A stretch of 64,000 nucleotides of DNA from an uncultured Gammaproteobacteria bacterium (GTDB lineage: Bacteria; Patescibacteriota; Patescibacteriia; UBA1558; GWA2-36-10), in contig CAZEWH010000003.1 in NCBI GenBank assembly GCA_964515785.1, positions 16,013 to 80,012 on the forward strand, given 5' to 3'. The translations under genes and the position numbers were made by a program. Within the stretch, counting starts at the first letter, position 1, and each line of letters starts with the position of its first letter. A model generated the notes under the pieces. It was not told the DNA's origin and made no database searches. It saw only the letters and a list, made by a program, of their open reading frames with translations. Of the stretch, positions 8,045 to 35,234 are shown in pieces.

Positions 8045-8163
8045 TAGATCCCTCCTGGTAAAGGTACAAAAACAAACTTAAATTACTCTTTTATAGTAAA
8101 ATTGTCAAATTGCTCAAGAATTAAAGCAATGTTATAATAAAAACATTATTAATATAATAAAAT

Positions 8164-8502
8164 ATGTTTAAACCAGAATTAACACAACAACCAGCCGAAG
8201 GTGCTGAGCAAAGTCGAAGTACTGAAAATTCTGAACCAGAAATGAGTCCTGAGCTCAGAGCAGGTCGTGAAGCATTATTAGCTGATCTAGAAGAAGCTGG
8301 CGAAGAAGGTTTGCGAATAATTTATTATGCAGCTGATGTAGTCATCAAGCCAGTACCTGGAGATCCGGAGCGCGTCACTTTTGAAACGCAGCAAGGCAAT
8401 AGTCGCTGGACAGGTAAAAGAAAATTTGGCAACGAGACCGTTACTCTCAATAGCATGGTTTTGCACTCCAAATATAAAAATACATTAGATAAAGCCGCTT
8501 AA
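8164..8502 (+). CDS. hypothetical acidic protein
   Basis: 112-aa ORF immediately upstream of CorC-like gene; no SD; moderately GC-rich 5' half; no motif. Confidence 0.35.
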   Translation: MFKPELTQQPAEGAEQSRSTENSEPEMSPELRAGREALLADLEEAGEEGLRIIYYAADVVIKPVPGDPERVTFETQQGNSRWTGKRKFGNETVTLNSMVLHSKYKNTLDKAA

Positions 8503-8507
8503 AAAAT

Positions 8508-9503
8508 ATGGATTATATTATTGTAATTATTTTAGTTTTGTTATCAGGATTATTTTCTGGCCTGACTCTAGGACTCTTGAGCCTCGACAAAAACGAACTC
8601 AATCGCAAAATTTCACTTGGTAATAAACAAGCTAAAAAAGTCTATGCAGTACGAAAGCGGGGCAATCTCCTGCTCTGCACTTTATTACTCGGTAATGTAG
8701 CTGTGAATTCTACTTTAGCGATTTTCCTAGGTGATATTGCTAGCGGCGTAGTAGCTGGTTTGATAGCTACAGGCTTGATTGTTATCTTTGGTGAGATCAT
8801 ACCACAGGCCACTTTTGCTCGCTACGCTCTAGAGGTTGGTGCTCGCACAGCCTGGCTAGTCCGTATATTTATGATAATCCTCTTTCCAGTATGTTGGCCG
8901 ATTGCCTGGATCTTGGACAAGACCCTAGGTGAAGAAATGCCAACTGTTTATTCCAAAAAAGAATTGATGAAAATTGTCGAAGAACATGAAGGATCTAAAG
9001 AGTCTGATGTGGATGCTGATGAAGAAAGAATTATCAAAGGTGCTCTATCTTTTTCTCATAAAACAGCAGAACAGATCATGACTCCTCGCACAGTTGTCTA
9101 TGCTCTGCCTCATGATGCTATATTAAATAAAAGATTACTTAATAAAATAAAAAAAGAAGGATTTACTAGGATTCCAATTTATAAAGAAAAAATAGATAAT
9201 ACTATTGGTGTGCTTTATGTCAAAGATTTGATCAATATCAGGACAAACACCAAGATTGAAAAAGTCTACCGCAAAGAAAAAACCCTAGCCATCCAAAAAT
9301 CTATGAAACTAGACAACTTACTTCAAACTTTTATAAAATCGAAAAAACATATGGCCTTTGTTCAAGATGAATATAAGGGCCTGGAAGGTGTTGTCACCCT
9401 AGAAGATATCCTCGAAGAAATTATTAGACAAGAAATTGTCGATGAAACAGATCGAGTAGTTAATTTACAAAAAAAAGCGCGTGCCAAGGAAAAGAAAAAA
9501 TAG
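8508..9503 (+). CDS. CNNM/CorC-family transporter (DUF21 + CBS pair + CorC_HlyC)
   Basis: N-terminal multi-TM DUF21-like region, central CBS-like region, C-terminal VTLEDILEEIIRQEIVDETD typical of CorC/HlyC transporter-associated domain. Confidence 0.7.
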   Translation: MDYIIVIILVLLSGLFSGLTLGLLSLDKNELNRKISLGNKQAKKVYAVRKRGNLLLCTLLLGNVAVNSTLAIFLGDIASGVVAGLIATGLIVIFGEIIPQATFARYALEVGARTAWLVRIFMIILFPVCWPIAWILDKTLGEEMPTVYSKKELMKIVEEHEGSKESDVDADEERIIKGALSFSHKTAEQIMTPRTVVYALPHDAILNKRLLNKIKKEGFTRIPIYKEKIDNTIGVLYVKDLINIRTNTKIEKVYRKEKTLAIQKSMKLDNLLQTFIKSKKHMAFVQDEYKGLEGVVTLEDILEEIIRQEIVDETDRVVNLQKKARAKEKKK

Positions 9504-9579
9504 ATTTTTCTTTTTTCAAAAAATATTGTATAATGTAGGTAGCTAATAAATATACAAATAAAAAACTAAAAATAAAAAT

Positions 9580-10554
9580 ATGAAACCTTTTTACAGAAAA
9601 ATATACCCTCGATCTTGGAAAACAGTCAAAAACAATTTTTCTTTATTGTTTTTTGGTCTATTTGCTTCGATTCTGGGTTTTCAAGAAATGACAATTATCT
9701 TTAATTTTAACGAATTAGAGGCTGACTTCTTGAGCGCTACTATCATGTCTTTATACGAATGGATCAGTATAATAGCCATGACTCAAATAACTTGGGCTAA
9801 TGTCCCAGCTATCCTAAACCTTGTACTAATCTTTATTATTTTTGCTGCTATTATTATTTTGGCAATATCTTCACAAGGTGCTTTGATCTCTGCAGCAGTT
9901 GATGCCACTAGTAAAAGCAAAAAAACAATTAGTACTTATTTTTCCAAACATTTCCAAATTGGTTTAGAAAAATTTTGGTCATTACTTGGCCTTAATATAG
10001 TAAATATCTTGATTGGTTACTTCTTTGTTAAACTAATTATTCAACCATTAATTTATTTTATTGTTGTTAGTAATACTGGTCCTGGTCTTTACCTATTATT
10101 GTCTATAATAATCTTCTTTATTCTTGTACCACTAGTAGTAATTATCTCTTTTGTTACACGCTACGGAGCAGCTTATATTATTTTGAAAAACCAAAACTTT
10201 AGTAAAGCTTTTGTAAACGGTTGGAATCTATTTAAAGCCAATTGGTTGATTACTATAGAAAATGCAGTATTGTTGATTTTGATTACTTTTGTCTTCTTTT
10301 TACTAATGATATCAGCAATGGTCTTTGTCTTTACTCCATTTTTGATTCTTAGCTTTTTGATAGCAGCTAATACTCTAATTTATTGGCTAATCATATTGAT
10401 AGGCTCTTTACTAGCTGTTATCATTTTTATCCTAGCTGGTGGTATGTTTGGTGCCTATTATAATATAACCTGGGCTAATATCTGGATTCAATTAACTGCT
10501 AAAGGTAAAAGTCACAGTAAAATCCAACGAGCTACTAAAAAATATTTACCCTAA
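9580..10554 (+). CDS. polytopic membrane protein, unknown function
   Basis: 324 aa, about 6-8 hydrophobic helices, AT-rich native composition. Confidence 0.5.
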   Translation: MKPFYRKIYPRSWKTVKNNFSLLFFGLFASILGFQEMTIIFNFNELEADFLSATIMSLYEWISIIAMTQITWANVPAILNLVLIFIIFAAIIILAISSQGALISAAVDATSKSKKTISTYFSKHFQIGLEKFWSLLGLNIVNILIGYFFVKLIIQPLIYFIVVSNTGPGLYLLLSIIIFFILVPLVVIISFVTRYGAAYIILKNQNFSKAFVNGWNLFKANWLITIENAVLLILITFVFFLLMISAMVFVFTPFLILSFLIAANTLIYWLIILIGSLLAVIIFILAGGMFGAYYNITWANIWIQLTAKGKSHSKIQRATKKYLP

Positions 10555-10565
10555 ATAATATTTCC

Positions 10566-10591
10566 TGCCCCGCCTTTGGCGGGGTTTTTTG
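10566..10591 (+). terminator. rho-independent terminator
   Basis: CCCCGCC-TTTG-GCGGGG hairpin + TTTTTTG. Confidence 0.65.
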
Positions 10592-10653
10592 ATTGACTTT
10601 AAAGACTAGTAAAAGTATAATTATCTATATATTGATACTTAATTGTATAAAAC

Positions 10654-33899: not shown

Positions 33900-33936
33900 G
33901 ATGATTTTTTCTTTTAAACTTGCTATAATATAAGCT

Positions 33937-34725
33937 ATGTATGAAACCGAATTAAAAATAGCTAAACAAGCTGTCCGAAGTGCGAGTAAATTTTTGAAAC
34001 CAGAATTTTTTAATTGGAAAATAGGTGGTGGTAAACTAAAAAATGGCGATGAAATAGTTACTTATTGTGATAAAAAATCTGAAAAAATTATTTTAACTAA
34101 GTTAAAAAAACATTTTCCCAAATATACTGTACTTTCTGAGGAAAAGGGATTAATAGATAATCATAGTGATTATTTTTGGACTATCGATCCCTTAGATGGT
34201 ACTTCTAATTTTACAAATCATAATCCGTTTTGGGCGGTATCTATTAGCTTGTTTTATAAAAAAGAAGTAGTGCTTGGCGTGACCTATTGTCCGATTTTAG
34301 ACGAAATGTATTGGGCTATCAAAAATCAAGGAGCTTATAAAAATAAAACTAAACTCAAAATATCTCAAGAACAAAATATAAAAAAATATATCATTGGTTA
34401 CAACCACGGTACTTCTTCAGATGATACCAAAAAAATATTCAAAATGTATTATCATTTTCAAAAGACGGTTCATCGGACTAGAAATTTTTATTGTACTAGT
34501 TTACAAATGGCTCTGACAGCTGGTGGTTATCTTGACGCTTATATGGTAAAAAACCCACACATATGGGATGTGGCTGCTGGAATTATTTTGTTGCAAGAAG
34601 CTGGTGCTACATTGACTGACTGGAAAAATAAACCTTGGATTAAAAATTCAAAAAGTATCTTAGCTAGTAACAAAAAAATGCATCCTATTTTACTAAAAGA
34701 ACTAAAAAAACTCAAACTTGCCTAA
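33937..34725 (+). CDS. inositol monophosphatase/FBPase family protein
   Basis: WTIDPLDGTSNF motif, WDVAAG near C-terminus. Confidence 0.7.
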   Translation: MYETELKIAKQAVRSASKFLKPEFFNWKIGGGKLKNGDEIVTYCDKKSEKIILTKLKKHFPKYTVLSEEKGLIDNHSDYFWTIDPLDGTSNFTNHNPFWAVSISLFYKKEVVLGVTYCPILDEMYWAIKNQGAYKNKTKLKISQEQNIKKYIIGYNHGTSSDDTKKIFKMYYHFQKTVHRTRNFYCTSLQMALTAGGYLDAYMVKNPHIWDVAAGIILLQEAGATLTDWKNKPWIKNSKSILASNKKMHPILLKELKKLKLA

Positions 34726-34757
34726 AATATAAAAGTCTGCTAAATTATTATCCTCAA

Positions 34758-34832
34758 GGCCACGTAGCCAAGTGGTAAGGCAGGGGTCTGCAAAACCTCT
34801 ATTCGGCGGTTCGATTCCGCCCGTGGCCTCCA
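34758..34832 (+). tRNA. tRNA-Cys (anticodon GCA), CCA encoded
   Basis: GGCCACG/CGTGGCC acceptor, anticodon loop CTGCAAA, GGTTCGATTCC T-arm. Confidence 0.85.
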
Positions 34833-34833
34833 T

Positions 34834-34855
34834 CTCGCAATGCGAGATTTTTTTG
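34834..34855 (+). terminator. terminator hairpin after tRNA-Cys
   Basis: TCTCGCA-A-TGCGAGA + TTTTTTT. Confidence 0.55.
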
Positions 34856-34871
34856 ATACAAAAAAGCCCGA

Positions 34872-35075
34872 CTATTCAGTCGAGCCTTGATTTGATTCTT
34901 CTTGAGGAAGTTTGCAGCAAGCATCAGCTTCGTCAAAAGTCATGTATCGCATCCCGCAGACCGGGCAACGATAACGGCCATCGATACGGCCGTGTCGTTC
35001 GGCTTCAGACAACAGTTTGTGGTACTTGACATACTTCTTGGTTGCGGCATCATTTTGACTACCACTCACGTTCAT
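34872..35075 (-). CDS. zinc-ribbon-like mini-protein, GC-rich (tRNA-cluster island)
   Basis: RCPVCGMRYMTFDEADACCK; AAGGAGG abuts the ATG, so GTG at 35069 (6-nt spacing) is the likelier start; terminator CGACTGAATAGTCG + T-run downstream. Confidence 0.45.
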   Translation of the reverse strand: MNVSGSQNDAATKKYVKYHKLLSEAERHGRIDGRYRCPVCGMRYMTFDEADACCKLPQEESNQGSTE

Positions 35076-35234
35076 CCTCCTTGCAAAGGTACAAAGAACT
35101 ATTCTAAATTATCATAATTTTTTAGCTATGGCAAATAAAAAATCACGTAAAGACGCGAGCGTCCACGTGATAAAACAAAAACAAGCTAAAAGCTTGAATG
35201 GCGTGCCACGAACTTGAGCGAAGCGAATAGTTTG

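Follow-up and report, generated by a model that had tools for sequence, protein, structure and literature searches.

Shine-Dalgarno leaders before unrelated GC-rich genes in a 64-kb stretch of an AT-rich bacterial genome

The stretch analysed here, 64,000 nucleotides (nt) of contig CAZEWH010000003.1 and called the window below, comes from an AT-rich bacterium with ordinary housekeeping genes. Scattered among them are about 16 open reading frames (ORFs) of higher GC content. Two of these, ORF A and ORF B, are preceded by nearly the same short segment, module 1, of the form TTTGTACCTTT-N-C-N-AGGAGG. The original prediction took module 1, and a second segment called module 2, for recurrent untranslated modules shared by unrelated cassette genes. 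Module 1 exists at the two sites claimed, with 18 of 20 positions identical, and the similarity of the two copies exceeds chance, though not overwhelmingly. The copies are probably homologous and appear to belong to a small lineage-specific leader family rather than to a general cassette signal. With its two close copies, a looser one and an orthologue, this family stands before unrelated small genes, and it indicates no new mechanism. Most of the interest lies in the setting of these leaders, a clean split within the window between acquired-looking genes led by a Shine-Dalgarno (SD) sequence and native genes without one.

Module 1 and its context

In both copies the 11-mer TTTGTACCTTT ends three nucleotides before the SD core AGGAGG (Table 1). 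A pattern search of the window for module 1 with up to two mismatches returns these two matches only, against 0 expected, and the exact 11-mer is absent elsewhere in the window and in about 20 kb of flanking contig. The second ORF had been started at ATG 35075. The ORF stands, but its start is GTG 35069, which gene callers choose and which gives the 'MS...' N-terminus found in all homologues; the SD-to-start spacer is therefore 6 nt in both copies. Similarity had also been noted to continue for about 20 nt further upstream. What recurs there is TAATTTA, a −10-like hexamer element, 9–10 nt upstream of module 1 in both copies but shifted by an indel of 1 nt. As was claimed, the proteins encoded downstream of the two modules are unrelated to one another, and for module 1 the similarity sits in the expression signal.

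The tests anchored on the SD took in 14–15 SD leaders of the window. With 15 leaders aligned by their SDs and compared as 105 pairs, the A/B pair shows an in-register run of 11 with a family-wise P of 0.005; when shifts of ±3 are permitted, P is 0.055. Local alignment with the SD held fixed gives P = 0.004 against dinucleotide shuffles and P = 0.022 with lenient gap costs. The looser third member precedes ORF 48995-49291, inside an operon of three GC-rich ORFs, where it lies at the junction between two of them. Save for an indel covering TTTGTAC it is similar to leader B, and its alignment with leader B under lenient gap costs has a score of 33 (P = 0.078 when taken as the maximum, P = 0.002 when taken as the second-best pair).

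Upstream of each copy lies a putative promoter of the pattern TTGNCA-N17-TAATTT. This pattern occurs four times in the window, against 0.24 expected, and three of the four occurrences stand upstream of GC-rich ORFs. Two terminator-like hairpins lie just upstream of ORF B, so that a promoter of its own would be needed there. Many GC-rich ORFs, among them most of those that stand alone or head an operon, have promoter-like sites of their own, and several carry a terminator-like hairpin. The extended −35 region of ORF A, the 15-mer TTGAGCAATTTGACA (8103-8117, minus strand), is found unchanged at 58371-58385 (minus strand) upstream of a native yebC-like gene, equally far from the start codon in the two places. 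This identity points to host-type promoter material at ORF A. Sharing of upstream words is not special to the GC-rich class: AT-rich native genes share words that are equally strong or stronger. The top-scoring upstream pair of the window belongs to native genes 8164 and 27428 (about 8122-8161 and 27385-27424, plus strand), which have in common the 17-mer ATGTTATAATAAAAACA, an extended −10 promoter with what would be the first transcribed bases; their local alignment score of 45 exceeds all 100 shuffles (P < 0.01). A Bacteroidetes-type −7 motif (TAnnTTTG) in leader A was considered and dropped, the other promoters of the window being of TTGACA/TATAAT type.

The sole other copy of module 1 found is the orthologous leader in a related species (locus L154), where it stands as TGATAATTTAAGAATATCTTTTTGTACTTTTTCAAGGAGGATGAATGTG before the first of two tandem paralogues. 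Leader B is kept in this species: the window and L154 agree at 47 of 54 positions between the −10 element and +5, and the promoter of ORF B is conserved as well (L154:3720-3740). The flanking genes are 82–84% identical in nucleotides and four-fold degenerate sites 59% identical. The coding part differs in arrangement. Where the window has one gene for the small CPxCG protein (34872-35069), L154 has two paralogues in tandem (L154:3774-4171); ORF B matches paralogue 1 in its leader and first codons and paralogue 2 in its body. This mosaic alignment suggests that the window lineage underwent a deletion or fusion, or else that the L154 species underwent a duplication.

The two downstream genes have quite different relatives. 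ORF A looked like an orphan in a word-indexed search, before an exhaustive search placed it in a family of uncharacterised proteins of about 95 amino acids (aa) with an HPNGWH motif, numbering about 100 representative clusters, the best 53% identical. No Pfam, PHROG or PDB relative of ORF A was found, and Kelch-repeat matches of the family profile in the PDB and Pfam are spurious. ORF B encodes a small, zinc-ribbon-like protein with CPVCG...CC cysteine motifs; its AlphaFold2 model has a mean predicted local distance difference test score of 60.6, too low for a fold search. Homologues of ORF B occur in two contexts, in a related species with conserved synteny (L154/L155) and in Gram-negative contigs of 61–70% GC, where amino-acid identity is 78–83%. 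These GC-rich contigs encode LptD, multihaem cytochromes and M16 peptidases. The homologue in them is itself 50–58% GC, 8–16 points below its host contig, and it follows a different, long conserved leader of about 110–150 nt (L152:3840-4000, L156:1965-2123 and L159:560-721). The conserved blocks of this leader are CTACATCT.GGGG ... TTACTCAAA.GGAA.GGGTGAGCCG-ATG, without an Rfam match, and it is possibly an uncharacterised cis-regulatory leader. Since ORF B occurs in very different genomes behind another leader, the gene has been shared horizontally and the module 1 leader is specific to the AT-rich lineage, and this speaks against a simple joint transfer of gene and leader. Horizontal sharing thus holds for at least one GC-rich gene, with 83% identity in Gram-negative contigs of 61–70% GC.

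Module 1 had been offered as a probe for further members. Scans with the probe TTTGTACCTTTNNNAGGAGG matched 8 stretches in IMG/VR viral contigs, 34 in 185,579 species genomes and 94 in metagenome contigs, of which 80 were listed. The matches are scattered over unrelated organisms and single in each contig, most of them within coding sequence or at one conserved Burkholderiales locus. An AT-rich promoter context like that in the window is found at none of the listed matches. Module 1 is not a widespread or mobile 5′-untranslated module.

A shorter box is common to more leaders. CTTT-N3-AGGAG (CTTTNNNAGGAG) has seven matches in the window, where 0.65 would be expected, and four of the seven are start regions of GC-rich ORFs, namely 7748, 34872, 48995 and 62190. 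Of 14 SD leaders, 6 have a CTTT no more than 14 nt upstream of the SD, against a shuffle mean of 1.07 (P < 0.0005), compared with 2 of 47 native genes (Fisher p = 0.001); these statistics were devised after the data had been seen. As RNA, the CCUUU box is able to base-pair with GGAGG or AAGG, and folding predicts small hairpins that occlude the SD. In leaders A and B the hairpins are weak, with minimum free energies of −3.7 and −6.5 kcal/mol and z = +0.6 and −1.4 against shuffles. A thermometer or attenuator hairpin was set aside, as folding is no better than that of shuffles and the base pairs differ between the copies. No Rfam cis-regulatory family matches the window. The clearest case of a CTTT box pairing with the SD is TCCTTTAAATAAAGGA (1664-1680, minus strand), upstream of ORF 952-1662, where a perfect 6-bp hairpin, TCCTTT-AAAT-AAAGGA, covers the SD.

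Table 1. Leaders, promoter-like and terminator-like sites, and associated ORFs in the window (GC3, GC content at third codon positions)
Feature	Position	Strand	Remarks
ORF A	7748-8044	-	98 aa; GC 0.45, GC3 0.54
Module 1, copy A, TTTGTACCTTTACCAGGAGG	8051-8070	-	TTTGTACCTTT at 8060-8070, ACC, SD AGGAGG at 8051-8056
Spacer and start, copy A		-	6-nt GATCTA, then ATG 8044
Putative sigma-70-type promoter of ORF A	8080-8108	-	TTGACA-N17-TAATTT
Intrinsic-terminator-like hairpin after ORF A	7715-7741	-	
ORF B	34872-35069	-	65 aa; GC 0.48; between tRNA-Cys and tRNA-Leu
Module 1, copy B, TTTGTACCTTTGCAAGGAGG	35076-35095	-	TTTGTACCTTT at 35085-35095, GCA, SD AGGAGG at 35076-35081
Spacer and start, copy B		-	6-nt ATGAAC, then GTG 35069
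Putative promoter of ORF B	35106-35134	-	TTGCCA-N17-TAATTT; TG at extended −10 position
Terminator-like hairpins just upstream of ORF B	35182-35196, 35143-35158		
Terminator-like hairpin overlapping the end of ORF B	34863-34888	-	
Looser third member, GAATAGTTGTCTTTATAAGGAGGTTGAAC	49292-49320	-	before ATG 49291 (ORF 48995-49291)
CTTT-N3-AGGAG initiation region, CTTTCCAAGGAGATAAATA	62171-62189	+	GC-rich ORF 62190-62876; only the short box in common with module 1
Module 2, site 1, CCCAAT-A-CAAGGAGGCAAGA	22722-22741	-	before ORF 21685-22719; SD region only
Module 2, site 2, CCCAATGTGCCAAGGAGGCAAAGA	24311-24334	-	CCCAAT-GTGC-CAAGGAGGCAAAGA, before ORF 24032-24310
Near-consensus promoter before ORF 952			TTGACA-17-TATTAT
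Near-consensus promoter before ORF 6956			TTGACA-17-TATATT
Near-consensus promoter before ORF 62190			TTGACA-17-TATAAT
Near-consensus promoter before ORF 24032	24354-24381		TTGACA-16-TAAGAT; terminator at 23984-24013
CoaD-like adenylyltransferase fused to P-loop kinase	21685-22719	-	family-assigned GC-rich ORF
DUF3307 protein	21309-21704		family-assigned GC-rich ORF
DUF218 protein	16545-17234		family-assigned GC-rich ORF

Shine-Dalgarno sequences and the two gene classes

The genes downstream of the modules do form a compositionally distinct class, as claimed. Two-state composition segmentation and per-ORF statistics give about 16 GC-rich ORFs with GC of 0.43–0.50 and GC3 of 0.34–0.55, scattered among native genes with GC of about 0.33 and GC3 of about 0.22. 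The two classes also differ in their translation signals. A strong SD duplex (ΔG of −6 kcal/mol or below with ACCUCCUUU) is present at 13 of 16 ORFs with high GC3 and at 2 of 48 native genes (Fisher p = 4e-9). The upstream regions of native genes are A/T-rich, and a further 18 native genes in the flanks (L146, L150) are almost all without an SD (about 1 of 18 with one). Across the SD leaders the predicted duplexes range from −7 to −12 kcal/mol, the SDs are of A/C-AGGAGG style, and the SD-to-start spacer is 5–7 nt in 14 of 14. Both module 1 copies have the complement of CCUCC within about 5–9 nt before the start, with duplex energies of −10.8 and −11.2 kcal/mol. Translation signals, besides composition, thus separate acquired-looking from native genes almost perfectly within 64 kb. 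In a check for leaderless native genes, TATAAT-like hexamers 5–8 nt before the ATG show no clear positional peak in the AT-rich sequence, and leaderless transcription is accordingly not claimed.

The SDs bear on gene starts as well. ORF 5013 probably begins at ATG 5354 (minus strand; GGGAGG then 7 nt, 113 aa) and ORF 6384 at ATG 6704 (minus strand; AAGGAGG then 5 nt, 106 aa). Both starts differ from the longest-ORF calls and agree with some public gene calls. For annotation, the leaders fix the start of ORF B, offer these alternative starts and support the orphan ORFs as real genes.

Module 2 has a different basis. It was described as CCCAAT followed by 3–6 nt and a core, CAAGGAGG, before ORF 21685-22719 and before ORF 24032-24310, which encodes a 92-aa protein without known family. 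The gap of site 2 fits this spacing, whereas that of site 1 is 1 nt. Similarity of the two sites does not exceed chance, with P of about 1 in register, 0.94 in an alignment with the SD fixed and 0.61 with lenient gaps, and this is the outcome that the original prediction itself had named as telling against it. In columns anchored on the SD, a C stands at −2 in 8 of 14 leaders and an A at −1 in 9 of 14; the preference is class-wide. The module 2 core CAAGGAGG is therefore the consensus SD of all these leaders, and it equally represents the extended complement of a canonical 16S 3′ tail. A relaxed module 2 pattern gives 26 single matches in viral contigs, about the chance number by a rough estimate. 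Nothing in module 2 goes beyond this shared SD consensus and chance.

How far the GC-rich ORFs are acquired is seen from composition and relatives. Deviating composition is found throughout the class, and close homologues in distant genomes are found for ORF B only. Most GC-rich ORFs have no Pfam or PHROG family and are mostly of unknown function; those with an assigned family are listed in Table 1. No paralogy was found among them, and no integrase or transposase among the window ORFs scanned. With tblastn, the orphan GC-rich ORFs gave no match in plasmids, and in phages they matched only for the CoaD-like domain and ORF 6384-6710. The latter (minus strand) resembles a hypothetical protein encoded by Tunturi_5, a 309-kb phage of Tunturiibacter (38.5% identity, E = 8e-8), and is the sole phage link found for the orphan ORFs.

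The native genes include those for FtsH, GlmS, trigger factor, H+-PPase, RuvC, YebC, two glycogen synthases and T4SS-pilin-like proteins, and there are ORFs of the size of ValRS, PolA, NusA and UvrB. Window GC is about 34%. No large biosynthetic operons are seen; in this and in its T4SS-pilin-like genes the window is like uncultured bacteria with small genomes, and the gene content suggests a small genome. Four tRNA genes are the sole Rfam models at gathering score in a scan of the window; the scan found no rRNA gene in the window or in the flanks fetched. The window sequence recurs at 99–100% identity in many independent assemblies (JGI, ENA, Logan and NCBI) and is therefore no assembly artefact. 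The other assemblies with ORFs A and B have this same near-identity and are hence uninformative on divergence. Two strain-level indels are seen among assemblies, a 32-bp deletion within ORF 7306-7632 (window 7483-7513) in assembly L143 and a difference of about 100 bp at window 61891-61991, in a very GC-rich segment (0.59) near 61.9 kb, in assembly L149.

Two further elements stand apart from the leaders. A GC-rich, ORF-free stretch of about 277 nt (window 5436-5712, minus strand) lies just upstream of the promoter of ORF 5013-5354. Its minimum free energy is −107.8 kcal/mol (z = −4.85, with 0 of 200 shuffles as good), and at a permissive threshold its sole Rfam match is STnc350, which at 18.3 bits (E = 0.66) stays far below the gathering score of 60. 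The stretch is therefore a candidate uncharacterised structured RNA. A 62-nt element occurs at 20018-20079 and 28211-28272 (plus strand). Its copies are 84% identical, hold the perfect palindrome CTCCCCCTAG(T/A)CTAGGGGGAG and overlap the 3′ ends of the unrelated native genes 18621-20024 and 27428-28231. It looks like a repeated 3′ module of terminator-like or repetitive extragenic palindromic (REP)-like type.

Origin and function of the shared leader

We favour, at about even confidence, the reading that the leaders are ordinary expression signals of a distinct class of acquired genes and that leaders A and B are related by descent within the lineage. The unit would begin with a sigma-70-type promoter (TTGNCA-17-TAATTT), followed by the pyrimidine-rich stretch TTTGTACCTTT, then the SD and a spacer of 6 nt, with transcription starting so as to give a leader of about 30 nt. 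Most likely it would simply serve to transcribe small acquired genes and to have them translated from an SD, in a genome where native genes lack one. The identity of A and B and the weaker likeness of B and 48995 would reflect common descent of a short leader segment, carried by duplication or by recruitment of an existing promoter and leader onto another acquired coding sequence. Duplication within the lineage draws support from the host-like composition, from a −35 region like that of a native gene, and from the lack of this leader before the homologues in GC-rich genomes.

Several observations weigh against this reading. When 75-nt upstream regions of all 63 ORFs are compared without an anchor, the A/B pair ranks 4th, with P = 0.25. 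The pattern TTGNCA-N17-TAATTT was defined after copies A and B had been seen, so only the two extra matches count as enrichment; its −10 hexamer agrees with TATAAT at 3 of 6 positions only, and a stricter consensus promoter scan calls neither A nor B. Other promoter regions are as conserved between the window and the L154 species as leader B is, and the conservation therefore shows promoter or leader function and nothing more special. Use of the SDs by host ribosomes is itself a prediction from sequence. More copies from this organism could be among the 14 metagenome stretches beyond the 80 listed. There are only two close copies and one orthologue, too few for covariation or phylogenetic tests. 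Finally, the 48995 copy separates two GC-rich ORFs of an operon, a position easier to explain by a junction taken over from a donor than by duplication on the recipient side.

Chance with convergence, in which T-rich leaders of an AT-rich genome and a consensus SD at fixed spacing produce an 11-nt coincidence without common descent or any shared function beyond the SD, is unlikely, though it is the alternative to be taken most seriously. The unanchored P, the higher scores of native pairs and the P of 0.055 with shifts of ±3 all speak for it, and the A/B pattern was found by eye, after the fact. The CTTT-N3-AGGAG box in four leaders fits it too, as convergent selection on the initiation region could explain part of the identity. 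It has to meet family-wise P values of 0.004–0.022 in three SD-anchored test designs, a second-best pair, B and 48995, that is also above the null (P = 0.002), and an 11-mer found only twice in 64 kb plus 20 kb, each time 3 nt before an SD. Both copies also have TAATTTA 9–10 nt upstream and TTGNCA 17 nt beyond. Descent would account for this combination more readily than convergence. A shared cis-regulatory element is rather improbable. Here TTTGTACCTTT, at about +5 to +15, would be an operator, or an RNA element in which CCUUU pairs with the SD (an attenuator, a thermosensor, or a small-RNA or protein site), and A and B would be co-regulated. No operator-type palindrome or repeat is visible, no Rfam family matches, and the hairpins are weak, no better than shuffles and built from different pairings in the two copies. 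In L154 the CC of the box has become CT and the following G has become T, so the box is not strictly kept. The enrichment of CTTT 5′ of the SD (6 of 14 leaders, against 1.07 by shuffle and 2 of 47 native genes) would suit such an element, as would the seven CTTT-N3-AGGAG matches for 0.65 expected, four of them at starts of GC-rich ORFs, the ability of CCUUU to pair with the SD, as in the perfect hairpin before ORF 952-1662, and the conservation of leader B above the level of four-fold sites; the CTTT statistic is the one devised after the fact.

The original prediction had proposed modular assembly or a common donor, and either may hold for the small leader family of A, B and 48995. Arrival of the leaders together with their genes from one background of about 45–50% GC, a phage or a bacterium with strong SDs and stereotyped junctions, is as improbable as a shared regulatory element. 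The GC-rich ORFs are alike in composition and in SD style (C/A-AGGAGG, spacer of 5–7 nt), gene B is clearly shared across phyla, and ORF 6384-6710 matches a jumbo phage protein. The 48995 leader lies between two ORFs of one operon and probably arrived with the block; because it is inside an operon, this copy favours inheritance from a donor with stereotyped junctions. The relatives of gene B in GC-rich genomes nevertheless carry an entirely different long conserved leader, and the module 1 leader and promoter are AT-rich like the host, with 15 nt of the −35 region of A the same as in a native promoter. Phages, plasmids, genomes and the listed metagenome stretches yielded no module 1 in a context comparable to that of the window, and no integrase or transposase is among the window ORFs scanned. 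More speculative, and the least probable of these proposals, is that the organism runs two initiation systems. Native genes would be SD-less, some perhaps leaderless, and acquired genes would depend on a lineage-specific 'plug-in' unit (TTGNCA-17-TAATTT, a leader with UUUGUACCUUU or CUUU-N3, the SD and a 6-nt spacer) whose anti-SD-like CCUUU box would allow joint translational switching. We retain ordinary expression signals, related by descent within the lineage, as the account of leaders A and B.

Comparison with known systems

The window leaders share with the canonical SD initiation region an AGGAGG or AAGGAGG core and a spacer of 5–7 nt. They differ in that the SD is limited to a compositionally foreign minority, native genes being without it, and in that its use by ribosomes is predicted. 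A pyrimidine- or U-rich tract upstream of the SD is known as a translational enhancer from the phage T7 gene 10 leader (TTTGTTTAACTTTAAGAAGGAG) and from binding tracts of ribosomal protein S1. Module 1 is similar in that its short leader has a T-rich tract with TTTGT...CTTT immediately before a strong SD; the likeness is a loose one that requires gaps.

Bacteroidetes promoters are of a type different from TTGACA/TATAAT. The closest conceptual analogue of the window is found in the Bacteroidia, where the anti-SD is sequestered and rpsU is the one gene that keeps a strong SD, for autoregulation (PMC13000453). As there, native genes are almost without SDs and a few genes have a very strong one. 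In the window, however, it is GC-rich ORFs of acquired or probably acquired origin, rather than rpsU, that have an SD, the promoters are TTGACA/TATAAT-like, and nothing in the gene content points to Bacteroidia.

Integron gene cassettes resemble the window ORFs in being small, unrelated, often orphan and of foreign composition. The window ORFs differ in being scattered rather than in an array, and in that most of those standing alone or heading an operon have their own promoter-like sites and several have a terminator-like hairpin. No attC-like or recurrent imperfect inverted repeat was seen after GC-rich ORFs, and no integrase among the ORFs scanned. Taken together, these features do not fit integron cassettes.

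Horizontally acquired genes with unusual composition, among them the 'atypical genes' of GeneMarkS-2 (PMC6028130), agree with the GC-rich ORFs in deviant GC3 and patchy distribution, and one window gene is 83% identical in distant GC-rich genomes. Two GC-rich genes adjoin tRNA genes. Differences are that no mobility genes or attachment sites were found in the window and that several of its members are conserved small-protein families of unknown function. Should the SD split hold genome-wide and the SDs be used, it would become testable how foreign, more structured GC-rich mRNAs are translated in an SD-poor organism, and whether the presence of an SD marks recent acquisition. What the window adds to the description of atypical genes is that translation signals separate the two classes as well as composition does.

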